Shown here: one piece after another, positions 12,280 through 35,438 of the stretch
Layout: every line of letters begins with the position of its first letter
How positions within the stretch are numbered: the first letter of the stretch is position 1
Virus record (IMG/VR): IMGVR_UViG_3300020045_011686
Span: 1-39,826 of that record
Length of the DNA stretch: 39,826 nt
Strand: one strand, 5' to 3'
Source: a virus
Lineage: Duplodnaviria > Caudoviricetes
Made by a program: the position numbers and the translations under genes
Notes under the pieces: model-generated
The model's input: the letters and a program-made list of their open reading frames with translations, nothing else
The model's database searches: none
What the model was told of the DNA's origin: nothing

Positions 12280-12451
12280 AGGAGAAACAGACAAAGATGA
12301 GATGCGTGAGAGATGGTTTTGCCCTATTCATGAATACGGTAAATTTGAATATGCACCAAGCCCATTTGGGCCGAACGACGCTCAACCGTTTTGTAGTGCC
12401 TGCGACTTATCCACGTTAGTTTGGGGAACACCCGCGCATATAAAGTTGTGA
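12272..12451 (+). CDS. small Zn-binding protein
   Basis: CPIH...CSAC. Confidence 0.55.
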   Translation: MNKGETDKDEMRERWFCPIHEYGKFEYAPSPFGPNDAQPFCSACDLSTLVWGTPAHIKL

Positions 12452-12810
12452 AAAAATTATTCACTAATGATGTTTGTATGTTTTGGAACAAAAATAAACA
12501 AGTCCACGCCCCCGTCACAGAACACGACGAACGCGTCAAATGCGGTGAATGTAAACATTGGATTGATAAATCTGATGCACAGTTCGTCGATGTTTACCCG
12601 TTCTACGAATCCACTAACGAACTCGATTGCGCATATTACTGCCCGATGCACAAAAAGCCATTTGATGCTATACGATGGCGATACTGCCCTATTCCCGGTA
12701 AGAAAGCAGGAGAACGAGTCGTAACAAAGTACTTCAAAACAATCCCCGAACATCAGGTAGAGGTCACGGAGAAGGGTAGAGAAATAAAACGAAAACGTAA
12801 CTTACCATGA
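12448..12810 (+). CDS. hypothetical Zn-binding protein
   Basis: CGECK...YCPMH; start uncertain (GTG 12448 or ATG 12478). Confidence 0.6.
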   Translation: MKKLFTNDVCMFWNKNKQVHAPVTEHDERVKCGECKHWIDKSDAQFVDVYPFYESTNELDCAYYCPMHKKPFDAIRWRYCPIPGKKAGERVVTKYFKTIPEHQVEVTEKGREIKRKRNLP

Positions 12811-13580
12811 ATAAACCATCAATCGGCGTATTGGGTCATGGGTTCATTGGCAAGGTTATCAGTGAATGGTATGCGGACGGAGGATATACGGTACATCCAT
12901 TCGACATCAATGGAGACTATGACTTAAAAGCCACGCTGAATAGCGACATCGTTTTTGTTGCCATCAACGCGAAAGACAACTTCGCGAGCGTTGAGAATCG
13001 TAATATCTTGAGTGAATACTTCAAGCACATTCCCGACAACACGCTCGTTATTATTAAATCCACCGTTGTACCCGGCACAACAGACTACCTTGACGAAGTG
13101 TTCCCTAAGTTGCCCTTCTGCTACAACCCCGAATTTCTCACCGAGATGACTGCGTTTGAAGATTTCAACAGTCCCGACATACAGATTCTTGGGCTTCCAC
13201 ATCGTTCACTTGAATTCGCCGGTGCGATATTTGACCTGTTACCCGACGCACCAGTAAAACGTATCGTCTCTCCTCGCGACGCTGAAACAATCAAACACGC
13301 AACCAACTCGTATTACGCGATGAAACTCATCTTCTTCAACGAATTGTATGATGCTTCGTCTACGTTGGGATGTGATTACGAAACGGTGAAAGAAGTTCTA
13401 TCCAAGAATCAATGGATTGGTGACTCGCATAATGTTGTCTTCCACAAGGGTTATAGGGGATTTGGCGATACGAAAGTCTCGAAGTGTATCCCGAAAGACA
13501 CCACCGCCTTCGCCAAACTCACTGGTTCAGAGTTACTCAGTACAACGCTAAAAGTAAACGAACGCATTTACAGAAAATGA
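12807..13580 (+). CDS. UDP-glucose/GDP-mannose 6-dehydrogenase family (short form)
   Basis: GHGFIG, IKSTVVPGTT, YNPEFL, KHATN, GFG...KCIPKD (catalytic Cys); C-terminal UDP-binding domain absent. Confidence 0.85.
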   Translation: MNKPSIGVLGHGFIGKVISEWYADGGYTVHPFDINGDYDLKATLNSDIVFVAINAKDNFASVENRNILSEYFKHIPDNTLVIIKSTVVPGTTDYLDEVFPKLPFCYNPEFLTEMTAFEDFNSPDIQILGLPHRSLEFAGAIFDLLPDAPVKRIVSPRDAETIKHATNSYYAMKLIFFNELYDASSTLGCDYETVKEVLSKNQWIGDSHNVVFHKGYRGFGDTKVSKCIPKDTTAFAKLTGSELLSTTLKVNERIYRK

Positions 13581-13702
13581 ACAAGCAACGCACTCATGAA
13601 TTAAAAGCGTTGTTCCTCGAACATGCAAGGGAACGAAACGTGCCAGCAGAACGCATGAAGTATTATTGGCGTAGATTTAAGAAAGCATGGAAACAGCGGT
13701 AA
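13577..13702 (+). CDS. 41-aa basic microprotein
   Basis: MNKQRTHELKALF...; ATGA overlap. Confidence 0.5.
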   Translation: MNKQRTHELKALFLEHARERNVPAERMKYYWRRFKKAWKQR

Positions 13703-14535
13703 AACATTGTGAAGTATGTGGAGTGGAAATCCCGAGTGATTTCCAGAACCTCCTCTGTATGGAGTGTTATGTCAAACAAGCGAACAAAGACTCGGTGTTT
13801 GTTGAGCCCGTACAAGGTAGTGGAATCACCGACCCCGAATATAGAGAACGCGAGGAGGTTGAAGAACTTGACCTCGTATCACGATGTCATGGGAGGTTTA
13901 AGGATGCGGGCTTGGTAATGCCTGCACCGCAGAGAAAAGCATACGAGGCGGTGAAAGACTATATGCGAAACGAATGCATCACCAAACACGTCCAGTATCC
14001 GAAGTTTATATGGAAACCCACGGTCATCGACATCGGAAGTGGATTGGGTATCGGTTCAAACATTCTCTCTCAAGAAGCAGATTATGTTTTGGGGGTAGAT
14101 AAGAATGCAGAGAATGTATCCTACGCTTCGCAGATGTTCACGCGCCAGAAAAATAATGTCTATTGGGCTCCGCAGGTTGATTTTATGGTGTCGGATGTCT
14201 ACACGGATACACGAGAGTTTATGAAATTTGACTTTGTGACTGCGTTTGAAATCATTGAACACTTAAAAGATTGGGAGAAGCTCTGTGTGTTCATCAAGAA
14301 AGTGGTAAAACCTACCGCAGTCATTTTCATTTCAAGCCCAAACAGAAACGCATGGAAAGGAACCGAGCGAGAGAAAACGCCTCTTAACGAGCACCACGTA
14401 CGCGAGTGGAGCGCAAATGAGTTCAAAGATTGTATGTCGAAATACTTCTCAAGCGTTGAGTTGCTTGATTACGAACTGAACCCTGTCGGTGATGTGACAC
14501 AAGTAACCCCTGTGGTGATACGATGCCGCCCTTAA
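13687..14535 (+). CDS. class I SAM-dependent methyltransferase with N-terminal Zn finger
   Basis: CEVCG...CMEC; VIDIGSGLG, GVDKN, FDFVTAFEIIEHL, ISSPN, HHVREW. Confidence 0.85.
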   Translation: METAVKHCEVCGVEIPSDFQNLLCMECYVKQANKDSVFVEPVQGSGITDPEYREREEVEELDLVSRCHGRFKDAGLVMPAPQRKAYEAVKDYMRNECITKHVQYPKFIWKPTVIDIGSGLGIGSNILSQEADYVLGVDKNAENVSYASQMFTRQKNNVYWAPQVDFMVSDVYTDTREFMKFDFVTAFEIIEHLKDWEKLCVFIKKVVKPTAVIFISSPNRNAWKGTEREKTPLNEHHVREWSANEFKDCMSKYFSSVELLDYELNPVGDVTQVTPVVIRCRP

Positions 14536-16565
14536 TATCGGTGGTACTGAGCGCAAGGAACGAATGGCCGCACATTGCGTTCACCATTCATTCAATCTTA
14601 AACGCGCTTGAAACAGACTACACGCCAGACCAATACGAGCTAATTATTGTCGATAATTGCTCAAACGACTGGAAAGAGAAACGTGGTGATGGCGGGACGG
14701 TGGATTTTCTCTCATCGCGAGGGATGTTTCATAACGGAGTTCTTCGAGTGATGAAATACCCTGTCGCTTCAAATGTTGGAGCAAGAAATTATGGAGCGAA
14801 GTTCGCGCGAGGGAAATATCTATTCTTCTCTGACGCCCACATGTCCTATGGGCTTGGGACGTTCAAACGCTGGATAGAAACGATTGATGAATCGGGTGGG
14901 ATTGTTCATCCTGCGGTGGCGTGGATGGGCTCGTATCCTCCGCAGAAAGGATATCAGTACAGTTGGAAACTTGGAGAAGAATTCAAGGGTTGTGTTGATG
15001 AAGAAACCGAGATTCTTACCCGGGAAGGTTGGAAGAAGTGGTATGAAGTATCGATGGAGACTGAATTCGCGACAGTGAATAGAATGAACGAACGGCACGT
15101 CGAATTCCAAAAACCACGAGATTTGCTCATAAAAGATTATGAGGGTGATATGGTGCATATCACACATCGAAGTTACGACGCACTCCTCACGCCCAATCAT
15201 CGAGTATTATATCAACCACAAGAACTTCACAGGCGACATGATACGGAGTGGAAAGTGAAGTTCGCTGAAAACGTAAGCGGGAACGAGTTCCTTCCACTAA
15301 TAGGAAATGGTATTGAGAACTCGGTTTCCATACTGCGTGATGAAATGGTTGAACTTGTAGGATGGATAGTAACTGAAGGATGTTTCGATAAAGATACCAT
15401 CACCATCACACAGTTCCACCAAGAGAAAAGAGCGCACATAGAATCGTTGTTGCGTCGACTGGATATATCGTACTGTATTCACGGTAAGAAACGCGATTTT
15501 AAGATTCACCAACGGGATTCGAGAAAAATTAAATCGCTGTTACCCGTAAAGGAGTTGACGCTTAGTTTTCTGTATAAATGTAGTCGCTCGCAACTTGAAT
15601 TATTACATAAAGTACTTATCGACGGCGATGGGACGCGTAGTAAAACGGCGGAACACTTCATACAAGTAAATAAAAACACCGTTGACGCTTTTCAGATACT
15701 ATGTGTACTAACCGGTAAAGCGAGTAGAACGACGATACGAGAATTCACACCCGAGATGCAACACTACGGTAAGAAACAAATAAGTGTTGTTTCGGTAAAA
15801 AAAACTGAATATGTTAGTGGATTTCGTGTAGAACGGGAGAAGTACTCTGGAAAGATTTGGTGTCCAGACCTCAAGAATGGAACTATTTTCATCAGAAGGA
15901 AGGGACACGTTATGCTTACTGGAAACACGTGGACGAATTACTCTCTTTCAACAACAGACTGGTTTTATGTCGGTGGGATGGGACACTGTTCTCTCGGAAT
16001 GCTTCGGCAACAATTTCTTGATTATCTCGGATATATCGAGAACCGTTGTTATGGTGGTGGGGAGATGTACCTTGATACTTTGTGGTGGATGATGGGGTCA
16101 TGTGCCGTGACGGAACCACGGATTAACGCATACCATCTTTCTGCGGGGCGAGGATATGCGTACTTTCATGATGACTATGTGCATAACGTGTTTACCTGTT
16201 CATTGGCGTTGGGAGCGGATTGGTGGGCGGAAAGAACTTATATCAACTACCTCCGTAAGGGAAACGAACAACGCTTACAGGAACTGTGGAAAGAGGCACA
16301 ACAAACTGCCAAGACACAACGGAAGTTCGTTGAGGAACATCGTATCATGACGTTTAATGAGTTGATTGTGAACAAACCATGGGATGTAAAAAACATCGAG
16401 AAGTTCGGTAAAAAGAACTCAGGTATGTTGGTTTTCCACCCAACGTGGTTGAAAGAGATTGAGAAGTGTCAACGAGCGCAGGCGGTATACGACGCTTCAC
16501 CCACCCAGAAAGAACTGGCGAAGTTCATCGAAGAAAACCTCTCGCAGAACGTATATCGGAAGTAA
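14523..16565 (+). CDS. glycosyltransferase family 2 containing an intein
   Basis: ISVVLSARNE, IIVDNCS, ARNYGA, FSDAH (DxH), YGGGE; interrupted by an intein. Confidence 0.85.
   Translation: MPPLISVVLSARNEWPHIAFTIHSILNALETDYTPDQYELIIVDNCSNDWKEKRGDGGTVDFLSSRGMFHNGVLRVMKYPVASNVGARNYGAKFARGKYLFFSDAHMSYGLGTFKRWIETIDESGGIVHPAVAWMGSYPPQKGYQYSWKLGEEFKGCVDEETEILTREGWKKWYEVSMETEFATVNRMNERHVEFQKPRDLLIKDYEGDMVHITHRSYDALLTPNHRVLYQPQELHRRHDTEWKVKFAENVSGNEFLPLIGNGIENSVSILRDEMVELVGWIVTEGCFDKDTITITQFHQEKRAHIESLLRRLDISYCIHGKKRDFKIHQRDSRKIKSLLPVKELTLSFLYKCSRSQLELLHKVLIDGDGTRSKTAEHFIQVNKNTVDAFQILCVLTGKASRTTIREFTPEMQHYGKKQISVVSVKKTEYVSGFRVEREKYSGKIWCPDLKNGTIFIRRKGHVMLTGNTWTNYSLSTTDWFYVGGMGHCSLGMLRQQFLDYLGYIENRCYGGGEMYLDTLWWMMGSCAVTEPRINAYHLSAGRGYAYFHDDYVHNVFTCSLALGADWWAERTYINYLRKGNEQRLQELWKEAQQTAKTQRKFVEEHRIMTFNELIVNKPWDVKNIEKFGKKNSGMLVFHPTWLKEIEKCQRAQAVYDASPTQKELAKFIEENLSQNVYRK
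14991..15926 (+). mobile_element. intein with LAGLIDADG homing endonuclease (312 aa)
   Basis: G|CVDEETEILTREGW start, block B LLTPNH, LVGWIVTEG and LIDGDG motifs, end IWCPDLKNG...LTGN|T. Confidence 0.9.
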
Positions 16566-23307: not shown

Positions 23308-25039
23308 CTTTTCGTCCAGTTTTTATTCCATCAATAATAAACCCATTGAAGATAGGAATGTGGTGGCGTTCGGTGTTTGAAACGCGAAACCCAATACGAA
23401 ACCACTTGTCGTAAGGTAGTTTAAGATAGTCGTTCGTAACACTATTGACCCCAAGTGTTCGATAGTCTGAGATACCCTGTTCGTCCTCGATACGATACTC
23501 AACGTTCCAATGCCCTCGTTCGGCAAACACCCTCACTCCAGAGGCGGATTTAATGAGATGCGGAGAACCTATACTATACAAAGGAGTTTCGATAAACGCG
23601 GATACGGGAGTTCCTGTATTGTCGGAGATTCGTGTAAGCACATCTTCACCTCGTGTTACCGCGTCATTGTCGATATACTTGTTTGAGAATAGTCGGTAGA
23701 GTTTTCCTGCGCTATCGCCCCATAGAACATTTTCAACGGAGAGGACGTTGTTTACATTCCCTTGTGTGTTCGCGAGCGCGTTCCCCGAAAATGCCATACG
23801 CGTTGAGGTAAAACTCTTCATATTGGTAAGCCCCTCGTATGTCGTCCAGTTTTTTAACTTTGTATCGTATACAAGCACCACCCCGTTACGTGATGTGGGG
23901 CTCGTAATGTTCCCGATAAAGAGCAAGTACTGTCCTTCGTATTGTGCGCTGTATGTATTCACTACCACGCGTTCCACGAAGGTATCGTAATTCGGCACAA
24001 AATTATCGATATAGTCTTTTACGGGGTCGGAAATACGTACCCACTCGGAACCCGAACCCACGAACACTCCTGCGGGGCAGAACGTGTATAGTAAACCCCC
24101 AATTTCCTGAACAACAAAGTGGTTGTACGCCCCGACCTCCGAAGAAAGTTCCTGCATTGAGGAGATATTATATGAGAATGTTCGATTCAACTTGAATATA
24201 AAGAGTGTTTCTTTGTATTCTTTTAATCCAGTAATCTCACCTCCTTCCGCACTTTCCACATCGAAGAAGTTTGATACGTCCCAACTTGTAGAGTCACCGA
24301 GGTCAGAGAACGAAACACGTACTGGAGAACCGTTCCGTGCTGCGGCACCATCTGAACCACCTGAACCCGCAACGTAAATACGGTCTTTATAGTTTGTTGC
24401 AAATATTCCAGCGGGTGCATCATCGTCAGAAACGGCAGTAAAGGAAGTCCCGTCCCATGTATGAGAACCTGCACGACCATTGACGAAAATCTTATTGTTT
24501 ATCATTGCTGAGTAAAACCCTGAACGGTAATCCCCGCCAGAAAGCGTGACATTTACGAGCTGATTTACTCCCGTTGTTGCGGTGTGTGCCGAGGTAATAC
24601 CCGTAACTCCTGTAAACGTTGTTGCCCCTTTTCCTGTGTATGTAATCACATCTCCGTCAATTTCAATGGTTCCACTTGAAGCGAATGCAGAGGTATCTTC
24701 AACAGTAATGGTGGTGTCTCCAACTGCGACGGCGGCATCAAGTTGTGTACCAACAATGTTATAAATATCCCCAGTGGAGACATCAGTACGAACAAGCCAT
24801 TGCCAACGCGTGTAACCTGAACCTAAATTGTTTATCCCGAATGCCGGAGAGGCACCAATAGTCCCCGCCAACGTGTTTCCAAACTGTTGCCAACCCCGTA
24901 TTTTCTTCACCCGTCCCTGCTCATCGATGTTCACATTTACCGCATCGGAGAGCATGTTTTCCTTTTTCAGGAGGTCGGGAATATCCCGACGTACTCCGCC
25001 AGAGAAATCAAGCACCGCGAACGTATCTGACTGTGGCAT
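23291..25039 (-). CDS. tail nozzle / stabilisation protein (P22 gp10-, T7 gp12-like)
   Basis: N-terminal DFSGG...AVNVNIDEQGRVKKIRG; propeller-like YKDRIYV, VSFSD, GEITGL repeats; follows adaptor. Confidence 0.65.
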   Translation of the reverse strand: MPQSDTFAVLDFSGGVRRDIPDLLKKENMLSDAVNVNIDEQGRVKKIRGWQQFGNTLAGTIGASPAFGINNLGSGYTRWQWLVRTDVSTGDIYNIVGTQLDAAVAVGDTTITVEDTSAFASSGTIEIDGDVITYTGKGATTFTGVTGITSAHTATTGVNQLVNVTLSGGDYRSGFYSAMINNKIFVNGRAGSHTWDGTSFTAVSDDDAPAGIFATNYKDRIYVAGSGGSDGAAARNGSPVRVSFSDLGDSTSWDVSNFFDVESAEGGEITGLKEYKETLFIFKLNRTFSYNISSMQELSSEVGAYNHFVVQEIGGLLYTFCPAGVFVGSGSEWVRISDPVKDYIDNFVPNYDTFVERVVVNTYSAQYEGQYLLFIGNITSPTSRNGVVLVYDTKLKNWTTYEGLTNMKSFTSTRMAFSGNALANTQGNVNNVLSVENVLWGDSAGKLYRLFSNKYIDNDAVTRGEDVLTRISDNTGTPVSAFIETPLYSIGSPHLIKSASGVRVFAERGHWNVEYRIEDEQGISDYRTLGVNSVTNDYLKLPYDKWFRIGFRVSNTERHHIPIFNGFIIDGIKTGRKDDITR

Positions 25040-26475
25040 TACCCTATCGATTTAGGAAACTGGTTTGGGTCGACAAACGGAAGGAGCGTATCTCCGATGA
25101 CTTCACGCGCGTCCTTCACCCTCCCAAATTGTGACGTTTGTTTCAAGGCGTACTTCTCTTTGAGTTCCTTGAGTCCGCGTTCAAATCGGCTCTCAAGAGA
25201 GGTGAGAAGTTCTGACTTATTCACAAGTGGTGCAAGGTCGATTGACGCCCGTAAAGCCAGCACGTCGGGTTCGGGAATTGATGTACGCGCTTGAGTTTCC
25301 AATATATCCGTTGGTTCAACGTGTCCTGAATATACGATATCCCTCTCGGTAACTGTTGCTCCGTCCGAGTGTGTGGCAGCGGTTGTCCCCTCTTGCCCAC
25401 GAAGACATCCTGTAAATGTGGTTGAGGTGGAACCTGTGGCATAAATGACCTCTGAGTCAACGATGAATCGGTAGTAATCTCCACGATTGAATGAGGAGGT
25501 AGCCGCGACAGTGATGGTAGTAGCGGTTGTTGAACTTATCGCCGCACCCAAGGTGGTGGTAGAAGCGGAAGATGTAGGACGCGGCCAGACAAGCATTTGG
25601 TTGTTGAAGATAACCGCATGCGTGGGGTCTGCGGAGGTTTGGTCGGTATCCCAATGAGCGAGTTTCCACCAACTCCAGTTCTTCATTATGAGTGGCTGGG
25701 TATCAAATACTACGTTATGAATTTTCTGCACCGTTGATGGAATATCATACGCAAACTGGTTGGCAACGGAAGAGAAACTTCTCTCTACCTCATAGAATGA
25801 CCAGAAGGTTTGGTGTGCAATATCGCGTTGCCCGTCATTTAAGGCATCGTCAATCATCTTGTCGGTGAGTTTGCGGTCATCCAGTTCATCAAGCAATCTC
25901 CGAACCTTTCTTCGCAGCATGAACAGGGTGCGTGGGTCACGAGAAGAGCCCTGACCCGATTCCTCATAATTGACCCCATCAGAGTACGAGGAGAATGTTC
26001 CTGTGGTTTGGTTGTTAAATCGTACAAACCCATACCCTGTACTGTTGGTTACGTCTTCGTATCGTGTAAACAGGTCGTCGGGTTGGATTCGGTTGGTTGC
26101 AAGAACCGATACTCCCGAGGTGGAGTCGGTGGAATTGCGTGAGAACTCCACACGGTTGAAATCAAGGCGGTAAATTGGGGTACCGATAGGATGGTCAAAA
26201 CGACACCCAAAAGCAGAACCCTCGCGGTCAACTACAATCGCCGTCGCCGATGAAACCGCGGCATTTACTTGCATAATTTCCGTAGTGTCCTCACCGAAGT
26301 TTCCTATGAGCATATAGTCATTGTCTGCCCATACGTCAGAAGAGGTTCCAGCAGGAGCCAAATCAGAGGATGCAACAGTAAGCGTCGTTGATGAACCGCC
26401 AGCGGTTACGGCGGCGGTGAGAAACGTCCGTTCGCGGTCTTCGATAAGGGCTCCATTGTATACTTTGAGCAACAT
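25039..26475 (-). CDS. head-tail adaptor-like protein with extra beta domains
   Basis: TLFMLRRKVRRLLDE...IDDALNDGQRDI...YDIP adaptor-like segment; ATG 26475. Confidence 0.6.
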   Translation of the reverse strand: MLLKVYNGALIEDRERTFLTAAVTAGGSSTTLTVASSDLAPAGTSSDVWADNDYMLIGNFGEDTTEIMQVNAAVSSATAIVVDREGSAFGCRFDHPIGTPIYRLDFNRVEFSRNSTDSTSGVSVLATNRIQPDDLFTRYEDVTNSTGYGFVRFNNQTTGTFSSYSDGVNYEESGQGSSRDPRTLFMLRRKVRRLLDELDDRKLTDKMIDDALNDGQRDIAHQTFWSFYEVERSFSSVANQFAYDIPSTVQKIHNVVFDTQPLIMKNWSWWKLAHWDTDQTSADPTHAVIFNNQMLVWPRPTSSASTTTLGAAISSTTATTITVAATSSFNRGDYYRFIVDSEVIYATGSTSTTFTGCLRGQEGTTAATHSDGATVTERDIVYSGHVEPTDILETQARTSIPEPDVLALRASIDLAPLVNKSELLTSLESRFERGLKELKEKYALKQTSQFGRVKDAREVIGDTLLPFVDPNQFPKSIG

Positions 26476-26482
26476 GAATTTA

Positions 26483-29400
26483 TTATAACCTAGTTGTTTG
26501 TTTAATCTCAATAATGGGGTTAATGCGGTGTATTTCGAGGATGGGTATTCGGGGGGTAATTTCAAGAACTGGGGTCATCTGAGGCGGTGCGGTAGTGGTG
26601 GATGAGGTTGAAGATGAGGTGCTTGAGGTTGTGGAAGTCGAACTTGACGTACTCGTCGACGACGAGGTGGAGGAAGTTGAACTCGAAGTTGATGTCGACG
26701 AAGAAGTCGAAGAGCTGGTACTTGAGGAGGAAGATGTAGATGAGGTCGAAGACGTTGTACTGCTTGATGAAGTTGTGCTTGATGTAGATGACGAGGTTGA
26801 TGTACTCGAGGACGTCGAACTTGTCGTGCTCGAGGTGGACGATGAAGTGTTGCTTGTCGTTGACGACGATGAGGAAGAGGTGCTTGATGTTGTTGAAGAG
26901 GTAGATGACGAGCTCGAGGTTGACGTTGAACTTGACGACAAACTCGTAGTTGTTGATGAGGTCGACGTACTACTCGATGAAGACGATGTACTGCTCGACG
27001 TAGAAGACGATATTGATGAAGTTGAGCTTGAAGTCGAAGAAGAAGTTGATGACGAAGTTGAGGAGGTAGAACTAGACGTTGATGATGAAGTTGATGTACT
27101 TGTGGATGTTGAAGACGAGGTACTACTTGAGGTTGAACTACTCGTCGAAGTAGAGGTGCTGGTACTACTACTTGACGTAGAAGAACTTGTGCTCGTTGAA
27201 GTCGATGACGAAGAACTTGAGGACGTAGAAGTAGACGTGCTCGTAGAAGTTGAGGTTGAGCTAGAGGTTGTGTTCGTCGATGTTGTACTTGAAGAACTTG
27301 ATGACGATGAAGTGCTGGTAGAGGTTGATGTGGATGTAGAGGTGCTCGTCGATGTACTCGATGAGGTTGAAGTACTGCTTGAGCTTGTTGAAGACGATGT
27401 ACTGCTCGATGTCGATGTGCTGGTGCTCGTTGATGAAGAAGTGCTTGAAGACGACGTTGTTCCACCACCAGCGGTTGTCGTTGAAGACGAACTCGAAGAA
27501 CTCGAACTTGATGTTGATGTCGAGGTGGACGTTGACGTTGAGGTCGTTGTTCCTGCGTTTATTGTCCATCCGCTCCCAGCAGTTGCGGTCGATTGATTGT
27601 CGGTACTATTAAATGCGTACCAAGTGCTTGCTGGTGTGGCTACGGAATGTTGAATATTAAGATAGTACGCATATACCACTCCGCCTCCCGCTTTCGTGAG
27701 CGCGTGTGTAGCGGTGGTGTTAGAACCTATTGAGATAAGGTTCCCCGAACTCCCTGATACCGTCCATGTGGTTATAGTTTGAGTCGTCCCTGCGGTGAAG
27801 GCTATGGTATGCGCGGCAGTTCCTGTGTCTTTAAACTCACTGAATGTGTTCGAGCCAGTGATAGTATTTGTTGCGGTTGACGCATCACGAGCAAACCAGA
27901 CGACATTATATGTTGTTGCGCTGTTGCCCGCGAATGTAATTGCGGTATTCGATGTATTGGTAAACTTAATTGTTCCTGTGTTGGCGGTTAGCGTCCCTGC
28001 TGTTTTATTCCATGCTGTTCCTGTGCCAGTGAGCGTAACTATGGAACTCCCCATAGTAAGCGTTCCAAATCCGAGAATAAATGACGCGCTTGTGATGCTA
28101 TTGTTTTGTGTATTGAGTATTCCGGAAGAAATCTGTATAAGATTAGTGCTTGTTAGGGCATCTTGCATGGTCAGTGTGTTGCCCGCAGCTTTCTGGATAT
28201 ATAGTTGAACGGTAAACGAAACGCCTGCCGTGGTAAGTGTTCCGTTGCCCCGATGTTCAATGAGAAATGCTGCTGTCCCCGTCATCGTCATGCCAGTTTC
28301 CAGTGTGAGCGAACCAAATATACGTCGCGTTCCCGTTCCGAGCGCAAACGTCGGGCTGTTTAACACCCCCGTACAGTCAATGGACGCGGCGACAAGGTGT
28401 TGATTTACCGTAATAGTGCGACTCCCCGATGTTATCGAATATTGGTCGATAACCACTGTATCGTGACAAAGAGGAACCGTCGCTCCTGTTGAGCCATTCG
28501 ATGTAGCAGACCAACTTGAAGTTGCATTCCAGTTTCCCCCCGAAGTCGCCATCCAATAACGTGTTACTGGTGTCGTAAACGTAATACCAGAATTCCCTCC
28601 CGCATTCCCAACGGAAGCCCCTGAAAGGGTTATGCCCGAAATGGTTATGTCCTGCCAATCGGTATTATCAGCATTGGTGACGGCATTGGTGACAGAAAAT
28701 GTACGCGTACCCGTGTACGCATTAGAATATAGATATAGACGATTGGTAATGGAATTCCCCGATGGCGCGAATGTGGTAATAGTTTGATTTCCAGAAAACG
28801 TCATCGCCCCGAGCGAGCCTGTTGATGTTATGGTGAGTGAAGCAAACGTGTTCGCACCAGTCATGCTTCCCGCTGCCGTCAGGTTGGTTATCTGAACATC
28901 GTTATAGGAAAGACCACCGCCCGCGAATGACGGTTGTGCGCCATTCAATATAATGGTGGCCGACGCGCCACTCCACGTGAGGTTTGATGTCGTAGCGAAC
29001 GACCACCCTGAAGTCGCTGACTGACAGTACAAAGTTGCAGCACCGAGAGTGAGCGAACGGGTGTTTGAGTTATTACTGTTCCACGTTCCCGCGTATACGG
29101 TTTGTCCATTCACGTCAAGCGTTCCCTTTGTGAGGGTAATGGTGTTTGCAGTAGAACCCGCACCTGTTCCCCATGCACCCGTCAACTGCCAATTTCCGTT
29201 CGATGTAGCATTGAATGTTGCGTTGCCAGTCACTTTACCTGCAAAATCGACGGTTTGTGTCGTTGATGAGGTCGATACGAAGTTAATTGCCGATGACGTA
29301 GAACTTCCTGCGTTGTAGGTCATTCCTGAAACGAATTTCAGTGCGACATTTGATGCGCCCGCAGTAGCGTCACCGATAGTCAGTGTTACCGAAGCGCTAT

Positions 29401-29626
29401 GCGTAATGGTATTTGTGTACCCCGTGAAGTTTATCGAACGGCAAACGGGTGAGCCGTTAATAGTACAGTTTGACGCACCAGTCCCTACGCCATCGAAAAA
29501 TACGTCATCTGCGGCCGTAGGCACCGCAGCATTGTCTTGGGTATTCGAAGCAGTACCCCAGTTGGTGTTTCCTGTGGCGTCCCAGTTTGCGGATGAGCCG
29601 CCTGCAACCCAATAGCGTGCCGCCAA
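26483..29626 (-). CDS. beta-helix adhesin/tailspike-like protein with ~320-aa Ser/Thr tract
   Basis: Likely TTG start 29626 (MAARYWVAGG); two RYW...NW...VP..DDV units; T/G/N-rich beta repeats; S/T tract ~26590-27550; C-terminal PVLEITPRIPILEI. Confidence 0.75.
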   Translation of the reverse strand: MAARYWVAGGSSANWDATGNTNWGTASNTQDNAAVPTAADDVFFDGVGTGASNCTINGSPVCRSINFTGYTNTITHSASVTLTIGDATAGASNVALKFVSGMTYNAGSSTSSAINFVSTSSTTQTVDFAGKVTGNATFNATSNGNWQLTGAWGTGAGSTANTITLTKGTLDVNGQTVYAGTWNSNNSNTRSLTLGAATLYCQSATSGWSFATTSNLTWSGASATIILNGAQPSFAGGGLSYNDVQITNLTAAGSMTGANTFASLTITSTGSLGAMTFSGNQTITTFAPSGNSITNRLYLYSNAYTGTRTFSVTNAVTNADNTDWQDITISGITLSGASVGNAGGNSGITFTTPVTRYWMATSGGNWNATSSWSATSNGSTGATVPLCHDTVVIDQYSITSGSRTITVNQHLVAASIDCTGVLNSPTFALGTGTRRIFGSLTLETGMTMTGTAAFLIEHRGNGTLTTAGVSFTVQLYIQKAAGNTLTMQDALTSTNLIQISSGILNTQNNSITSASFILGFGTLTMGSSIVTLTGTGTAWNKTAGTLTANTGTIKFTNTSNTAITFAGNSATTYNVVWFARDASTATNTITGSNTFSEFKDTGTAAHTIAFTAGTTQTITTWTVSGSSGNLISIGSNTTATHALTKAGGGVVYAYYLNIQHSVATPASTWYAFNSTDNQSTATAGSGWTINAGTTTSTSTSTSTSTSSSSSSSSSSTTTAGGGTTSSSSTSSSTSTSTSTSSSTSSSTSSSSTSTSSSTSTSTSTSTSTSTSTSSSSSSSSTTSTNTTSSSTSTSTSTSTSTSSSSSSSTSTSTSSSTSSSSTSTSTSTSSSTSSSTSSSTSTSTSTSSSTSSSTSSTSSSTSSSTSSSTSSISSSTSSSTSSSSSSTSTSSTTTSLSSSSTSTSSSSSTSSTTSSTSSSSSSTTSNTSSSTSSTTSSTSSSTSTSSSTSSTTSSSSTTSSTSSTSSSSSTSSSTSSSTSTSSSTSSTSSSTSTSSSTSTTSSTSSSTSSTTTAPPQMTPVLEITPRIPILEIHRINPIIEIKQTTRL

Positions 29627-29627
29627 C

Positions 29628-29909
29628 TTAGTGTAGTTGAGCCTGTAATTCCGCTTTCTCTTGCGTGAGTTCTGCCACCATGCGTTCTTTTTCGGCGATA
29701 AGTATTTCAATCTCCTCTTTTGTTGGGACGGGTTTGGGTGGAGGATTTTCCACAAAAGCAACCCAGTCGTTTACCCTCTTTTGTTTCAGCGCATCGATGT
29801 CTTTTTGTTGTAGTTTCGCGTACTCTGCTTCAGTGAAGTAGAGCGTGTCGCGGTATTCACCATGAGAAGTTTGTTCGGTGAATTGAAGTTGTATGCGGAT
29901 GGTGTCCAT
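29628..29909 (-). CDS. small protein with C-terminal coiled coil
   Basis: 93 aa, packed between the two large S/T genes; possible chaperone. Confidence 0.7.
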   Translation of the reverse strand: MDTIRIQLQFTEQTSHGEYRDTLYFTEAEYAKLQQKDIDALKQKRVNDWVAFVENPPPKPVPTKEEIEILIAEKERMVAELTQEKAELQAQLH

Positions 29910-29912
29910 AGA

Positions 29913-31388
29913 TTAAGATTTAACGACTTCTAATATTGGTATTCTAGCGCGAATTTCAAGTTCGGGGATGATAAAGGGATGTCCCGTTGTGGTGGAAGAG
30001 GTTGAACTACTGCTGGAACTTGTCGATGTACTTGTTGAGGTGGTAGTGGTACTTGAGCTTGTTGAGGAGCTTGTGGAGGTCGTTGACGTACTCGTCGATG
30101 TGGAACTTGAGGTGCTTGTACTCGTTGAGGTTGAAGAAGATGTAGAGGTTGAAGTTGATGACGATGTAGATGATGAGGTTGACGATGAGGTCGACGATGA
30201 AGAAAGCGATGTTGTTGTGCTGGTTGATGTTGATGATGAAGACGACGTTGATGTCGAAGAAGAGGTGGTGCTTGAAGTTGACGAGGAGGTGCTTGTTGAG
30301 GTCGAGGTAGATGAACTACTTGAACTTGTCGATGAGGACGTCGTTGAACTGGTTGATGACGATGTAGATGATGAGGTTGACGATGAGGTCGACGATGAAG
30401 TAGAGGTTGATGTACTCGTGGAAGTACTCGTCGATGTGGAAGTCGAAGTTGTGGTTGTTGCTGCGGCATGAGTAACAACTAATTTAGGGTCAGTGGTAGT
30501 TCCTGCGGTGTCTGCGGATACTCCGTCAGCGTTACAGCTCGTGTTCGCCGCCCACGTGGGTTCGGTGTTACTTGCGTCACCAGAGATTCGATATCCGAAC
30601 TTCGTAATACCCGTTTTGGATATATTTGAAATCCCCGTGGCATTGAGCGTGAAATCGTTATACGCAACCGTGCTCCACGCGGAGACGGCGATGTTGTTCG
30701 CCTGTGCGGTTGTTCCCATTTGGTCATAATCTGCCGAAGCAAGCGCGGTGTTTGACGCTGGGGTCGTCGTGACCATAACAACAGACTGAGAAAAATTGTC
30801 TGCCGTTGCCGCTCCGTAAATAGAGTACACAGCAGCTGATATTGTGTCGGTGTCGGGGAGTGATGAGGTATCGAACAATGTGAACCCTCGCGCCATTTGG
30901 TTCCAATGTCCGCTTGTCGCGTTGGTGGAAATACTTACGTTCAACGCCGTGCCCGTATCTGAGGCCGCCGTCCCGTCCGCAGCGTCATGGATATCTGACC
31001 ATATTTGGTCGACACTTGTTCTCCATACATATCCGTCCACTGATGTACTTTCGGGACTGGGGTCAGGATAAAAGGTTGAATCGGTATTAAGAAAAAGAGG
31101 CACTCTTGCCGGTGAAATCATTGCGCCTCTTCCACGTATCAGATTCGCTCGTTTCATCCACCACGCCAACCACCCATAATCAATGGGGTAGAGATACCAC
31201 TCATCCTTGAGAATCATCCATCCGTTTCCGAATTGTCCATCGGTTATCTCTCCAAGGTCTCTCCACGAACCATCCGTAGACTTATAGTGAATGGGTTTGA
31301 CGTGAAACTCCGTGTCAATTTGCCCATCAGCGCGTAGCCATGACTTTGAGTTGTACGTTCGTTTACTGGTGAGTTCAAACAATCTCAT
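29913..31388 (-). CDS. DNRLRE/CBM96-like domain protein with ~155-aa Ser/Thr tract
   Basis: RGFTLFDTSSLPDTDTISAAVYSIY motif; S/T tract ~29987-30459; C-terminal PELEIRARIPILEV. Confidence 0.7.
   Translation of the reverse strand: MRLFELTSKRTYNSKSWLRADGQIDTEFHVKPIHYKSTDGSWRDLGEITDGQFGNGWMILKDEWYLYPIDYGWLAWWMKRANLIRGRGAMISPARVPLFLNTDSTFYPDPSPESTSVDGYVWRTSVDQIWSDIHDAADGTAASDTGTALNVSISTNATSGHWNQMARGFTLFDTSSLPDTDTISAAVYSIYGAATADNFSQSVVMVTTTPASNTALASADYDQMGTTAQANNIAVSAWSTVAYNDFTLNATGISNISKTGITKFGYRISGDASNTEPTWAANTSCNADGVSADTAGTTTDPKLVVTHAAATTTTSTSTSTSTSTSTSTSTSSSTSSSTSSSTSSSTSSTTSSSTSSSSSSTSTSTSTSSSTSSTTSSSTSTSSSSSTSTSTTTSLSSSSTSSSTSSSTSSSTSTSTSSSTSTSTSTSSSTSTSTSTTSTSSSTSSSTTTTSTSTSTSSSSSSTSSTTTGHPFIIPELEIRARIPILEVVKS
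30154..30400. repeat. 49-bp exact direct repeat in S/T tract
   Basis: 30154-30202 is identical to 30352-30400. Confidence 0.85.
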
Positions 31389-31861
31389 CGGATGAGTATG
31401 ATTCCCGGTAATCGTTGCGCCCACCAAGACTGCGGTTGAACGGTTTTGTGATATGGCGGTTCAGGTTTTGAGCAAATCCTTGCATATATACATTTTCCCA
31501 CACGTTGCATCTCTTGGAAAACTTGGTCTATCTCACTTTCATCAAGATGTTCAAAAAAGTCTGTTGAAACAACCACATCAAATGACTTGTCGGGGAATGG
31601 TAAATTACTTGCTGATACAATGATTGTTCGTTCTTTCGCAACCGATAACTCCATTACATCGGCAGAGATATCGGTACCCCACGCATCCATTCCACGGTCA
31701 TTTAATGCCCTTACCAAATATCCCAACCCGCACCCCACGTCGAGTACCTTTGAACCAACGGGGATACGACAAATAACTCGCATTGCGAGGTCTCCGCGTG
31801 ATTCGTATTTCACGCGTTTTTTGTGGTATTTCTTATCGTATAAATTCTTGGTGCGTACCAT
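31385..31861 (-). CDS. class I SAM-dependent methyltransferase
   Basis: VLDVGCGLG, GTDIS, LPFPDKSFDVVVSTDFFEHL. Confidence 0.85.
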   Translation of the reverse strand: MVRTKNLYDKKYHKKRVKYESRGDLAMRVICRIPVGSKVLDVGCGLGYLVRALNDRGMDAWGTDISADVMELSVAKERTIIVSASNLPFPDKSFDVVVSTDFFEHLDESEIDQVFQEMQRVGKCIYARICSKPEPPYHKTVQPQSWWAQRLPGIILIR

Positions 31862-32531
31862 CGCGAAGTGTTCGTTGAACGGTAATCGGTGCCTTGAAAT
31901 CGTACCCCTTGCGAAGTCCAATATCTTTTGCCATGTCTCGTGGTGTAACCACCATGAAGTATCCTTTTGAAATAAATTTGTCGTTAAACTTCGAGCCCGC
32001 GATGCGGTGATAAATAAACTCCCCAATATCGTAGAAATCTTTTCGTCTCACTACGAAACAATTTGACCCTGCACGAGTATTTAGACGATACCGTTCACCG
32101 TCAATTTCAAGAGACCCTATATCGTATCGTTTTGCCATCACGCCGGGGTATTGAATGGGGGTTACAAGATATTTTCTATCGGGGAACTTTTCAAAAACCT
32201 TCAAACACTTTTCGAGCCAACCCGATTCGCACACAATGTCGTTATCAACGAACGCGATATATTCTCCCTTCGCCTGTGAAACTCCTTGGTTTCTCGCATG
32301 GGCGAAGTGCATATTTCTTGCATTGCGTATGTAACATTGTATTTCCCCGCCCTGCGTCTTCTCTAAAAAATAGGCACTATCGGCAAGATTCTCCCCGTTA
32401 TCGACCACGATAACCTCTTGACGACCATGTAGTGTACTTAAAAGCGATTCAAGTGATTCTCGAGCGAGTTTGCTTCGTTCTTCGTTCATCGCCCAATGTA
32501 CAAAAACCACCGATACCATCTTCTCTTCCAT
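31833..32531 (-). CDS. glycosyltransferase family 2
   Basis: VSVVFVHW, VIVVDNG, FAHARNQG, AFVDND (DxD). Confidence 0.9.
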   Translation of the reverse strand: MEEKMVSVVFVHWAMNEERSKLARESLESLLSTLHGRQEVIVVDNGENLADSAYFLEKTQGGEIQCYIRNARNMHFAHARNQGVSQAKGEYIAFVDNDIVCESGWLEKCLKVFEKFPDRKYLVTPIQYPGVMAKRYDIGSLEIDGERYRLNTRAGSNCFVVRRKDFYDIGEFIYHRIAGSKFNDKFISKGYFMVVTPRDMAKDIGLRKGYDFKAPITVQRTLRDGTHQEFIR

Positions 32532-32542
32532 GTTGATATGAT

Positions 32543-32577
32543 ACAACACCCGCGTCACAAGGAAACGCGGGTGTTGT
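32543..32577. other. perfect 13-bp inverted repeat
   Basis: ACAACACCCGCGT-9nt-ACGCGGGTGTTGT, intergenic, no U tract on the sense strand. Confidence 0.8.
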
Positions 32578-32583
32578 GAACAA

Positions 32584-32847
32584 CTATGCAGTTGTTGTTG
32601 ACGATGTACTGCTTGATGTCGAAGATGAGGTCGATGTCGAACTCGAAGTCGAGGTCGAAGTGGAAGTACTGCTACTCGAAGAACTGGTGCTCGATGAAGA
32701 GGAAGTACTTGAACTTGTCGACGACGTTGAGCTAGATGTGCTCGAGGAACTTGACGTACTCGAGGACGTAGACGTACTCGTCGAGGTCGATGTGGTCGTG
32801 AAGGTGAAGTTGGTGTTCGTAAGTGCGGTGAGTATAAATTCAGACAT
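32584..32847 (-). CDS. 87-aa Ser/Thr microprotein
   Basis: MSEFILTALTNTNFTF followed by ~70 consecutive S/T residues and a terminal Ala. Confidence 0.7.
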   Translation of the reverse strand: MSEFILTALTNTNFTFTTTSTSTSTSTSSSTSSSSSTSSSTSSTSSSTSSSSSTSSSSSSTSTSTSTSSSTSTSSSTSSSTSSTTTA

Positions 32848-32848: not shown

Positions 32849-33199
32849 TTATGAGAATTCAACTAATGCAATACGGGTTGACGAAGCGGTGCTTCCTGCC
32901 TTCCTCACGCCCAGACCAAATACAGCGACGCTATCCCCAATGGGCAGTATATGGATTGAATTTGCGGGGATAACCGTGTGGTCTCCCGCGCTGTCGGTGG
33001 GGGTTGTAAACGTCCCATCGGCATTTTTGTTTACGAACTGGAGTGCGAGTGCCATCGGGCCTTTCACCTGAAGTTGGAGCCAAATGCGTCCACTTTGTGG
33101 TGAAGACCCGACGGACAGTTGCACCCATGTCGAGTTGTTTACCTGTTGCACACCAGCGGTTGCCGCGTGTGCGATACTATTTCCGTATAATCCTGACAT
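32849..33199 (-). CDS. virion-associated beta-rich protein
   Basis: 116 aa in head gene block. Confidence 0.6.
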   Translation of the reverse strand: MSGLYGNSIAHAATAGVQQVNNSTWVQLSVGSSPQSGRIWLQLQVKGPMALALQFVNKNADGTFTTPTDSAGDHTVIPANSIHILPIGDSVAVFGLGVRKAGSTASSTRIALVEFS

Positions 33200-33242
33200 G
33201 TGTTTGGGCGTTGCGATTTCTCAGAACGTCCGATACTAAGGG

Positions 33243-33650
33243 TTAAGACTTAGATTCAACTTTTTCTTGCTTCGTAACGAAGTCGTCGTACTCTCTAATA
33301 TCCCCGATGATTCCCTTGAATGGATACGACCCGATGGTGTACTCAACAAGGGTTTTGTCTCCGAGAATCTTATAGAGTTGCATACGAAGAAGTGGGGTAT
33401 CGTGTGTTTGACTTTGCGCCAAAACGATATTGACTCGTGAGTTTGGATTGTCCAAATCCTTTTTCGGTGCTTTTGACAACAACTCACTATCAACCATTTT
33501 CATCGCAAGGTGTTTTGCAATATGCAATCCAACGTGTTTTGAAAATGTGCGACGCTCCCCCGCCTTCAACGTATATGGTTCTCCGTTGTACTTCTGTACG
33601 AAGTCTTCTTTCGTGGGGTTTTGTAATTCCACAATATCTAACTCTGCCAT
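33243..33650 (-). CDS. hypothetical protein
   Basis: ATG 33650; NPTKEDF...YNGEPY...HIAKHLA. Confidence 0.7.
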   Translation of the reverse strand: MAELDIVELQNPTKEDFVQKYNGEPYTLKAGERRTFSKHVGLHIAKHLAMKMVDSELLSKAPKKDLDNPNSRVNIVLAQSQTHDTPLLRMQLYKILGDKTLVEYTIGSYPFKGIIGDIREYDDFVTKQEKVESKS

Positions 33651-33693
33651 GAATATAGTCCTAGTTTGATTATTTCTCTGAGTTAATTTTTGG

Positions 33694-34425
33694 TCAGTCG
33701 ATGGTGAGAAACACCGCGCCGTTTTCAGTCGTTGCAACGCCAGTTGCCGCGTACCCAACAGGGGCTTGCGCTTCCGTTGAAGCATTTGTGGCAACTTCGA
33801 CTGCTCCTGCGGTTCCGTTTGACGCAACCACAAGGGCTCCGACTGTTAGCGCACCATCAGCGAGAGGTGCGGAAATTCCGCGCGTTTGAATCCACCCGTA
33901 CTGAGCTGCGGTAATGTCATTCACCGCTACACCAACAACACATCCTGATGCGGTTGTCGGGTTTTGAATAACACCACTGTATGGGCTTGCCACAAGGTCT
34001 ACCTGTGAGGAAGACGATAGGGCTACCTGAATGGGGTCTTCGAGTTGGAAGGTGCATACTGCGCCAGTTGCAGCGGGGTGAGACTTGATTCGATACACCT
34101 CACCACGTCCCGTTCCTGCTTCGCCAGTGGGGATAAGATACCCTCCTGCGTATTGGTTTGCAGTCACGGTTACGGTGTCAGTGGTTGTTACGGATGTCGC
34201 TCCAACCGCAGCAGCCGCAACAATGCGGCTTTGATTGCCTGTTGCTTCCGCTGGGGACTGAAGAAGGTTTCCTGTAACGAGTGCCGAAGCTCCTGCCAAG
34301 ACGTAACGAAACGCACGTCCATCAGGAGTTACTAACTTTGTACCAAGTACCTGTGATGGTGTTGCCTCATCCAAAACGGGAGGGACACCAGCAAAGATTT
34401 GGGTTTCACCTGTGTATGTAGACAT
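33694..34425 (-). CDS. capsid decoration / cement-like protein
   Basis: Directly after capsid; LGT...DGRAFRYV, VGVAV...YGWIQTRG; Ala/Gly/Val/Thr-rich. Confidence 0.65.
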   Translation of the reverse strand: MSTYTGETQIFAGVPPVLDEATPSQVLGTKLVTPDGRAFRYVLAGASALVTGNLLQSPAEATGNQSRIVAAAAVGATSVTTTDTVTVTANQYAGGYLIPTGEAGTGRGEVYRIKSHPAATGAVCTFQLEDPIQVALSSSSQVDLVASPYSGVIQNPTTASGCVVGVAVNDITAAQYGWIQTRGISAPLADGALTVGALVVASNGTAGAVEVATNASTEAQAPVGYAATGVATTENGAVFLTID

Positions 34426-34427
34426 AA

Positions 34428-35438
34428 CTATGAAGTTACCGCAGTTCTACGCGCCATTGTGCGAGGCGAATCGCCGACTAACTGTCCTGCCCAGTAGAGG
34501 TGTCCTACGAGAGCATTTTGGTTTGTTGATTTCTTGAATCCGCTCCACGCGAATCCTTCTTTCGTTGCTTCTACCAAGTCGGCTGGGTAGTCGAGTTCGT
34601 AGAGAAAGAGGTGTTTCATGTTAAGCGTCCAAATGTTCCCCGACGTACACATCTCATCAGCCACAACAGGGATTCCACGGTAGTAAAACGAGTTTGCTCC
34701 ATGGTTCAGTCGAATTCCTTCGGTTCCGCCTGTCGGTGAACCCGTTGGAAGTGACTGGTTGTAGTTAATGTTCAGTGATGTCGGAGTTACGAGCCGTTCC
34801 ACAATCGAGAAAACAGTTGGCGTTGTCACGATTAAAGTCGGCGCATCGTTACCACGCTGTGCTGCATCATAGTCAGCCGCAAGGTTTGAAAAACCAAGCG
34901 CACCGCCCTGTGCATTACGCGTAGCACGAAGATTTGTGTACGTGTTTCGAGAAAGACCCTGATATGTGACCACATCAGTCGCGTCATCAACATGGTAGTT
35001 GAGTCCCGCGATGTCTTTGTTCGCATTGCCAGTTCCGTCGAGGTAGGCATCGGCACCAAGCTTTTCAGCAAGGTTACGAGAGATGTCTTCGAACTCCGTG
35101 GCAATGATGTTGAGATAGGCCTCTGGGCCCTTGTTTACGGCGAGCTGAATCCCACTGAATACTGCCTGAATGGTGTATTCCGATGGGTCGATAGTGAACT
35201 GTTGACGAACATTCTCTTGGTTCGTCGGAAGAGTGTCAAATCCCGAGAAGGACTGTGCACCCGTTCGGTTCGCTACCGTTGTGGAAATCGCCAGTCGTGT
35301 ACCACCCGTCCAAGGACGAGCAGAACCACGAAGTTGATTCCACAGTACGTTGCCGGTGAAAACGTTATCCACACATTTAGGAAAGAACTGATTCCTTGTC
35401 GTTGTGGTAACAAAATTTCCTAATTGAATTCCGGGCAT
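34428..35438 (-). CDS. major capsid protein
   Basis: 336 aa after scaffold; YLDGTG...IAGL, PTLIVTT, FYYRGIPVVADE patterns typical of HK97-fold capsids. Confidence 0.85.
   Translation of the reverse strand: MPGIQLGNFVTTTTRNQFFPKCVDNVFTGNVLWNQLRGSARPWTGGTRLAISTTVANRTGAQSFSGFDTLPTNQENVRQQFTIDPSEYTIQAVFSGIQLAVNKGPEAYLNIIATEFEDISRNLAEKLGADAYLDGTGNANKDIAGLNYHVDDATDVVTYQGLSRNTYTNLRATRNAQGGALGFSNLAADYDAAQRGNDAPTLIVTTPTVFSIVERLVTPTSLNINYNQSLPTGSPTGGTEGIRLNHGANSFYYRGIPVVADEMCTSGNIWTLNMKHLFLYELDYPADLVEATKEGFAWSGFKKSTNQNALVGHLYWAGQLVGDSPRTMARRTAVTS

Follow-up and report, generated by a model that had tools for sequence, protein, structure and literature searches.

A candidate phage-encoded glycosylation system for mucin-like Ser/Thr tracts on the particle proteins of a Caudoviricetes phage

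The IMG/VR virus record IMGVR_UViG_3300020045_011686 (Duplodnaviria; Caudoviricetes) is a linear sequence of 39,826 bases (CheckV, 90%), and the stretch analyzed in this study (hereafter the window) spans the whole record. Three genes on its minus strand, all located between the major capsid gene and the gene of a head-tail adaptor, encode proteins with nearly pure Ser/Thr tracts. A Pfam scan of the open reading frames (ORFs) showed that the window also holds three glycosyltransferases (GTs). On the basis of the observed tracts, enzyme families, gene order, co-occurrence in relatives and protein folds, we consider it probable that soluble enzymes encoded by the phage attach O-glycans to the Ser/Thr tracts on the phage's particle proteins and thereby coat the virion with a mucin-like sugar brush. 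The genes of the system are as follows.

32584..32847, minus strand: 87-residue "bristle" protein, predicted glycan acceptor; 16-residue leader and 70-residue Ser/Thr tail
31833..32531, minus strand: GT2 glycosyltransferase from a phage subfamily, probable chain-extending enzyme (PF00535, E 1e-20)
31385..31861, minus strand: class I S-adenosylmethionine (SAM) methyltransferase, predicted sugar O-methylation (PF08241, E 2e-17)
29913..31388, minus strand: 491-residue protein with a beta-sandwich head, a 158-residue Ser/Thr tract and a C-terminal tag (29984-29916), from a structure model and a tag alignment
29628..29909, minus strand: 93-residue partner gene preceding the large head gene, possibly a chaperone; homologues adjoin head-domain genes in two relatives (G084, G133)
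26483..29626, minus strand: 1047-residue protein with a 692-residue beta-solenoid head, a 320-residue tract and a C-terminal tag (26590-26486), from a structure model
25039..26475, minus strand: head-tail adaptor, candidate docking site of the C-terminal tag (PF24175 SU10_adaptor, E 2e-10)
11050..12279, plus strand: GT4 (GT-B) glycosyltransferase, candidate priming or core enzyme (PF00534, E 1.5e-5)
12807..13580, plus strand: short UDP-glucose/GDP-mannose dehydrogenase-like protein, predicted sugar-donor supply (PF03721, PF00984); lies in the operon cassette of relatives
13687..14535, plus strand: second SAM methyltransferase, usually directly behind GT4 in relatives
14523..16565, plus strand: polypeptide N-acetylgalactosamine (GalNAc)-transferase-like (GT27-like) enzyme with an intein-like insert (about residues 157-468), from motifs and PDB profile matches

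Composition of the Ser/Thr tracts

The original prediction, made from the window's DNA, had described near-pure Ser/Thr tracts of about 70, 155 and 320 residues, with a GT2 and a SAM methyltransferase between the first and the second. The analysis confirmed tracts of 70, 158 and 320 codons, and the PF00535 and PF08241 matches lie where the two enzymes had been placed. Tract 1 (32799-32590) consists of 46 Ser and 24 Thr, tract 2 (30458-29985) of 96 Ser, 61 Thr and one Leu, and tract 3 (27550-26591) of 206 Ser, 106 Thr and eight other residues, so that Ser and Thr make up 97-100% of the tracts. Each tract uses all ten Ser/Thr codons nearly evenly, with an entropy of 3.1-3.2 of 3.32 bits. The AGY codons, which a single change cannot produce from TCN, account for 22-33% of the Ser codons. 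The longest internal DNA repeats were 11, 49 and 21 nucleotides, against means of 11, 15 and 16 in synonymous shuffles. The 49-nucleotide repeat represents one recent internal duplication in the middle tract and is clearly above the shuffles (maximum 23), and the 21-nucleotide repeat in the long tract is borderline. The DNA shared between the three tracts was no greater than in the shuffles, and Tandem Repeats Finder (TRF) reported degenerate arrays only, with 63-80% matches. Since the codons are mixed nearly evenly, the repeat excess is small and no excess of DNA is shared between the tracts, selection on the protein, as originally proposed, would be the simplest reading, the duplication in tract 2 apart.

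Other explanations of the tracts themselves were rejected. A DNA-repeat artefact is ruled out by the codon mix, the shuffle comparison and the TRF result, and an assembly artefact by the presence of 127 distinct Ser/Thr tracts of the same kind in the fetched loci, the window included. Two shadow ORFs over the long tract (333 and 297 residues, in other frames or on the other strand) were dismissed because the Ser/Thr frame is continuous with conserved domains. In the 127 tracts, which range from 24 to 822 residues with a median of 67, Ser and Thr make up 95.5% of the residues; 72 of them end the protein, 37 precede a tag of 10-45 residues and 18 are internal.

Co-occurrence of tracts and glycosylation genes

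The association was examined from both directions. Starting from the enzymes, the GT2 subfamily was found at 12 loci (11 distinct), 11 of which had tracts within 10 kb; the record of the twelfth has three tracts elsewhere. GT4 was found at 80 viral loci. Tracts were present in the flank of 52 of these, all 83 tracts being on the strand of the GT4, and somewhere in the record for 68. The 12 loci without a tract all came from records that are 7-40% complete; in one of them, a shorter tract appeared once the threshold was lowered. Counted by identity cluster, those with a tract were 56 of 66 at 95% identity, 36 of 40 at 70% and 8 of 9 at 50%. The pairing of GTs and tracts spans at least three capsid or portal types, namely the capsid type of the window, the Phage_capsid_4 type, and HK97-like portals or tail tube. 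In a genome-contig collection GT4 gave six matches, four of them full or near-full, and the two longest of these four contigs carry tracts, one together with portal and capsid genes and the other with tail and lysis genes. Because the longest contigs among the 120 listed GT4 homologues are all shorter than 48 kb, GT4 fits a phage-specific family. Contigs of metagenome-assembled genomes that bear GT4 carry four unrelated labels.

Starting from the head domains, two alignments gave 158 viral loci in IMG/VR (single-protein locus searches gave one relative each), and 150 records were searched whole for GT2, eight small ones being left out. Coding tracts were present in 14 of the 150 records (five Ser/Thr, eight Ser/Pro and one poly-Ser). 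At least two GT2 matches were found in 10 of these 14 records as against 11 of the 136 tract-less ones; the corresponding figures were 9/10 and 6/77 at 50% completeness or more (Fisher p 9e-8), and 8/9 and 4/38 at 80% completeness. The 36 tract-less records that were read whole contained no coding tract, and for the other 100 the judgement covered up to 10 kb on each side. Four loci (L015, L017, L114, L146) whose tract-like matches were either shadow frames or a short Thr/Pro linker were counted as tract-less, as were three tract-like cases that were set aside (the second hit of L161, L202 and L244). How often tracts occur in phages that lack GTs was estimated from these 150 head-domain records only. 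Matches to GT4 occurred in 5/5 Ser/Thr records versus 5/36 near-complete controls, and those to the methyltransferase family (Methyltransf_11) in 5/5 versus 6/36. Among the head-domain records whose DNA was fetched, the window-type GT4 was found only in the five Ser/Thr ones. The co-occurrence of tract genes with glycosylation genes in head-tail operons, which had been proposed as a check, thus holds from both sides.

In many relatives, a single cassette between the bristle and stalk genes unites the GT4, methyltransferase, dehydrogenase and GT2 genes with an intein-free homologue of 14523-16565. By its place inside the morphogenesis operon of relatives, the cluster at 11050-16565 belongs to the system, and the window carries a split, minimal version of this cassette. 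The cassettes of relatives add variable sets of epimerases, GDP-mannose dehydratase (GMD), amidotransferase, deacetylases, FkbM and C-methyltransferases, and whole sugar pathways are inserted between capsid and tail genes. Five phages with Ser/Pro tracts (G024, G033, G036, G045 and G053) share a second cassette that was found in no other record (for example at L047:117-4264, L055:1558-6609 and L168:5693-11602). It consists of two GT2-fold enzymes, one of them GalNAc-transferase-like, a protein of 225-250 residues and methyltransferase-like genes. Its main enzyme matches GalNAc-transferases (E 1.5e-8) and is related to the 14523-16565 family (97.5%).

Glycosyltransferases of the window and the priming step

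The best PDB matches of the GT2 (31833-32531) were heparosan and chondroitin synthases and GalT1. Judging from these matches, the GT2 between tracts 1 and 2 is likely to be a chain-extending rather than a priming enzyme. The priming step would then fall to another enzyme.

Two candidates for this step were considered. The 14523-16565 family keeps, in the alignment, a DxH motif (DAH) and a YGGGE-type, Gal/GalNAc-T-like motif. The sole PDB matches of an intein-free homologue were GalNAc-transferases (E 5e-4), and the profile of 14523-16565 matched the GalNAc-transferases of the PDB over 230-260 positions (E 5e-7 to 1e-5). Generic GT2s scored similarly against this profile, but over the first 130 positions only. 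The GT27-like enzyme was present in all 11 close Ser/Thr records that were read whole and are at least 64% complete. In the window, the intein-like insert of this gene (14991-15926) shows a weak LAGLIDADG match and adjoins the substrate-side motif; it is absent from most aligned relatives. The GT4 (11050-12279) gave no match in a PDB search with its sequence alone, and its profile reached generic GT4 chains only (E 0.003), with no detectable closeness to GtfA. Because of its homology to polypeptide GalNAc-transferases, the GT27-like enzyme is slightly favoured as the putative primer in this phage, and the GT4 is a lesser but serious candidate because of its universal co-occurrence with Ser/Thr tracts. 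The GT4 is the constant partner of the tracts and the GT27-like enzyme the better candidate by homology, and either could prime. No membrane-like segment was found in 104 cassette proteins.

Heads, tag and placement of the tract proteins

The structure model of the 491-residue protein had a predicted local distance difference test (pLDDT) value of 86.7. Its head matched PDB 8wab with Z 16.6 (root-mean-square deviation 3.6, 171 aligned residues) and 7vbo with Z 14.5, the next unrelated row being at Z 8.4; the first 100 residues of the head were barely covered by this comparison. In the model, the beta-sandwich of this head resembles carbohydrate-binding modules (CBMs). The head of the 1047-residue protein was modelled as an all-beta solenoid (pLDDT 90.1) and matched "parallel beta-helix" proteins of uncultured phages in BFVD (E 5e-25, TM 0.81). 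It gave no PDB match at E<=0.001, the wide structural aligner not having been applied to it. Both head families are large, with 733 and at least 1686 matches, and those listed homologues that bear a tract have it at the same position behind the domain. Many relatives have a gene of the bristle type, composed of a leader and a tail, in the corresponding place.

The C-terminal tag of the two large proteins contains a 9-residue repeat and, according to the alignment, is conserved across different heads and genomes. The tag pattern occurred 18 times in the fetched DNA, 14 times directly behind a Ser/Thr tract and four times in short, apparently non-coding frames. Prediction of a complex between the tag and the adaptor gave a score of 0.35, compared with 0.01 for the best control; the runs agreed in at least 71% of the contacts, and the partner pLDDT was at least 41. 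The mark used for such predictions was reached by 116 of 157 solved pairs and 2 of 215 mismatched pairs, and at <=0.60 by only 18 of the 157 solved pairs and by both mismatches. The modelled complex thus gives weak support to docking of the tag on the adaptor. Since the tag and the tract travel together, the tag could instead recruit the enzymes.

The tract proteins of the window have no hydrophobic or signal-like N-terminus, and a membrane-like segment was found in none of 124 tract proteins. Searches of Pfam and PHROG matched none of the window's three to a known virion family. In relatives, the proteins that bear tracts include a tail hub, a tail-tube protein (PF18906, E 5e-6; phrog_290), distal and minor tail proteins, proteins with lectin-type domains (LamG and F5/8), and small proteins whose genes come directly after the capsid gene; in one relative (G169) the tract is on the C-terminus of the tail tube. 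A domain of 65-80 residues with Ser/Thr tails, encoded at L265:2429-2800 and in about 35 similar genes, directly follows capsid genes of the Phage_capsid_4 type; it is often present two or three times and matches nothing in Pfam, PHROG or the PDB. Searches with the small decoration-like domains and with a 224-residue domain likewise gave no match. The tracts had originally been proposed to form stalks that hold adhesin heads, or a shield. The stalk holds for part of the family; the 72 free C-terminal tails among the 127 tracts fit a shield or brush better than an adhesin stalk.

Evidence against the proposed system and alternative interpretations

Several facts weigh against tract glycosylation as proposed here. 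The tracts are optional on the heads: only 3/120 and 1/120 listed homologues of the two heads carry one, and the stalk is dispensable, since nearly all listed homologues do without it. In metagenome contigs, which are mostly short and were not read whole, a tract was present in the fetched flank of only 22 of 80 GT4 loci (9 of 21 over 10 kb), and a search of 50,697 INPHARED phage records with the GT4 gave no match. The similarity of 14523-16565 to GalNAc-transferases is distant, and the GT27-like enzyme is absent or weak in six distant Ser/Thr records that keep the GT4. GTs also occur without tracts, as in the 11 of 136 tract-less records described above. On the head-domain tree, the rows with tracts lie scattered (10 changes); this tree is poorly resolved and gives only two independent pairs on well-supported branches (p 0.5). 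The tree-corrected test therefore lacks power, and shared descent may underlie the pairing. One relative (G062; CheckV, 100%) has Ser/Pro tracts and no GT, as judged from 34 scanned ORFs and whole-record searches, and three records that are 32-40% complete (G052, G133 and G027) are also without GT2. Finally, the glycan, the location in the virion and the enzyme activities are all predicted from the genes.

Two of these records deserve a description. G062 (L064:1-1377, L178:2-2152) is a siphovirus and may represent host-supplied glycosylation, a bare tract or a counter-example. G052 (L054, L175), which is 40% complete, has poly-serine tails on DUF2460, tail-hub and other genes, and no GT was seen in it.

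It is worth asking whether the tracts are simply unmodified flexible linkers or entropic bristles, merely co-inherited with a cassette that glycosylates other sites of the particle, such as the termini of capsid or tail proteins. G062, the powerless tree test and the GT-rich records without tracts would all agree with this. The chemistry of the tracts, however, follows the type of cassette (Ser/Thr versus Ser/Pro), the pairing crosses capsid lineages, an enzyme resembling the GalNAc-transferases that act on peptide Ser/Thr is present in both cassettes, and the high Ser/Thr content of the tracts is unlike that of ordinary linkers. We therefore regard bare linkers as unlikely.

Another interpretation is that the tracts are glycosylated on proteins that do not belong to the virion and that serve as decoys or glue released by lysis, or are displayed on the host surface. 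The failure of the window's tract proteins to match a known virion family and the weakness of the tag-adaptor prediction are in line with this. It seems improbable, and somewhat more so than bare linkers, given that the genes sit between the capsid and adaptor genes, that tracts of relatives are on the tail tube and other tail proteins, and that signal-like or membrane segments are absent.

The enzymes might also remodel the host surface, for serotype conversion or superinfection exclusion, and be unrelated to the tracts. The cassettes do resemble O-antigen or capsule clusters in their epimerases, GMD, amidotransferase and deacetylases, and there is a weak GtrB-like PHROG match (E 0.006). The cassette proteins, on the other hand, include no membrane protein in 104, a flippase or polymerase is named nowhere in the cassettes except for one partial Polysacc_synt_C match, and the pairing with tracts would be left unexplained, which makes this interpretation very improbable. 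Hypermodification of phage DNA, which is the role of GT and methyltransferase clusters in other phages according to the accessible part of bioRxiv 10.1101/2023.12.21.572611, has hardly any likelihood here, as a thymidylate-synthase-family gene was found in 0/24 records (the positive control matched 10/14), the cassette lies in the morphogenesis operon of relatives, and 14523-16565 is homologous to peptide transferases. A search for TET/5mYOX dioxygenases (Tet_JBP) matched 0/24 records, and its positive control was likewise unmatched.

Gene order and other features of the window

The minus-strand operon runs from terminase through a P22-like portal, major capsid, decoration-like gene, two small genes and the tract and enzyme genes to an SU10-type adaptor and further tail genes, a predicted content that fits a short-tailed phage. 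The capsid gene, the decoration-like gene and the two small genes (32849..35438, minus strand) are directly upstream of the bristle gene, an order that is kept in relatives.

34428-35438, minus strand: major capsid gene (phrog_9953, E 1e-41)
33694-34425, minus strand: decoration-like gene (phrog_122 head decoration, E 0.004)

Probable starts, set from gene overlaps, are 32847 (ATG), 32531, 31861, 31388 and 29626 (TTG), and the start at 31388 overlaps the methyltransferase stop as ATGA. At 32540-32573, an inverted repeat lies between the bristle gene and the GT2. It could reduce the transcription that continues into the enzyme genes; a terminator scan made no call there.

Two lysis candidates were found, a papain-like peptidase with an endolysin-like C-terminal match (7252-8298) and, at 16607-17014, a small protein that resembles lysozyme and has a hydrophobic N-terminus. 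A Shine-Dalgarno motif is missing from the majority of the 25 window starts inspected, a weak hint of a Patescibacteria- or Bacteroidota-like host. Source names include Patescibacteria (P0184, P0451) and Omnitrophota (P0004). In three relatives the major capsid gene is split by an inserted ORF in an intron-like manner (L161:3058-5006, L268:2558-4510, L261:5540-7312), and in another the terminase large subunit (L001:1130-3433) is interrupted by an intein-like insert with an HNH-like ORF on the opposite strand.

Discussion

A possible course of events can be outlined from the gene content. The first sugar would be attached to Ser/Thr late in infection, in the cytoplasm, either by the GT4 or by the GalNAc-transferase-like enzyme once its intein has been spliced out. 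The GT2 would extend the glycan, the dehydrogenase would supply modified nucleotide sugars, and the two methyltransferases would O-methylate the sugars. The short leader of the 87-residue bristle may serve to dock it on the capsid, and the two large proteins may dock near the neck via their 9-residue-repeat tags. The glycosylated tracts would then hold the carbohydrate-binding-type head and the beta-solenoid head away from the short-tailed particle, and these heads would bind host glycans. The coat might shield the particle from proteases, from sorption to minerals or non-host surfaces and from decoys, or mimic the sugars of the host surface.

A broader proposal, for and against which we see about equal grounds, is that many environmental phages carry a portable, self-encoded glycocalyx module. 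This module would comprise appendable mucin-like tracts or stand-alone bristles, a neck-docking tag, a soluble prokaryote-side relative of the GalNAc-transferases and strain-variable sugar pathways, with the chemistry of the tracts matched to the enzymes, resulting in an antigenically variable, O-antigen-like coat. If this is true, virion glycosylation would be widespread in small environmental phages rather than an oddity of mycobacteriophages, with dedicated mucin-like acceptors and with sugar pathways taking up as much as one quarter of a 40-kb genome. Clusters of this type are routinely annotated as host-surface or DNA-modification genes. Glycoengineering would gain peptide O-glycosyltransferases that are small, soluble and free of lectin domains, and these would also bear on the origin of mucin-type glycosylation. 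Since a substrate, the 87-residue peptide, and the candidate enzymes are named, the claim is testable in vitro.

A literature search, with subscription papers largely outside its scope, found no paper describing Ser/Thr-tract virion proteins paired with phage GTs, and such tracts are not described in the accessible portions of PMC12801897 and PMC10866085. The window contributes the GT4 family that tracks the tracts, the split into Ser/Thr and Ser/Pro cassettes, bristle genes with nothing but a leader before the tract, and the C-terminal tag.

Among known systems, virion glycosylation was reportedly described by Freeman et al. in 2023 for the mycobacteriophages Che8, Corndog and Myrna. The available text of PMC12363180 and PMC12619734 describes mycobacteriophages whose own enzymes glycosylate the C-termini of capsid and tail-tube proteins, with a shielding role, and mycobacteriophage virion glycosylation is also mentioned in PMC12582341. 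The system predicted here has in common with these phages that phage-encoded GTs would act on the phage's own structural proteins, and the tract of G169 is likewise on the C-terminus of the tail tube. It differs in the acceptor, which is the C-terminus of capsid or tube subunits in mycobacteriophages, whereas dedicated tracts, stand-alone bristle genes and a shared C-terminal tag are found here. The capsid protein of the window carries no tract, single-residue sites being invisible from sequence. The GalNAc-transferase-like enzyme and the whole sugar pathways in the morphogenesis operon are further differences.

Serine-rich repeat protein (SRRP) adhesins are O-glycosylated in the cytoplasm by GtfA/GtfB and neighbouring enzymes including a GT4, according to the accessible part of PMC6973325. 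Both large proteins of the window match the SRRP layout of a binding domain, a long Ser/Thr-rich region and a short C-terminal anchor. Unlike SRRPs, however, they lack a long signal peptide, the Sec family (SecA2/Y2) was found in 0/49 window ORFs and an LPxTG wall anchor in 0/3 tract proteins. They are viral and would be released by lysis, and the window GT4, as described above, is not detectably close to GtfA.

With the eukaryotic GT27 enzymes, which in animals initiate the sugar chains of mucins, and with mucins themselves, the phage system shares a GT-A catalytic domain with DxH and Gal/GalNAc-T-like motifs, and dense Ser/Thr(/Pro) acceptors. The phage enzyme differs in that it has no membrane anchor and, in the Pfam scan, no ricin-type lectin domain, and the similarity is distant (E 1e-5 to 1e-8). 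The chondroitin-sulfate- and alginate-binding CBMs 8wab and 7vbo, which we take to belong to the family named CBM96/DNRLRE, have the same fold as the middle head at 9-16% identity. Gtr-type serotype-conversion cassettes have a membrane-embedded flippase and transferase, in contrast to the cassettes here with their lack of transmembrane-like proteins, and DNA-hypermodifying clusters have a thymidylate-synthase homologue for hydroxymethyl-base supply, which was not found in the 24 records. The proposed system would thus work like an SRRP or a mucin but belongs to neither, and it is best filed as a new form of phage virion glycosylation.

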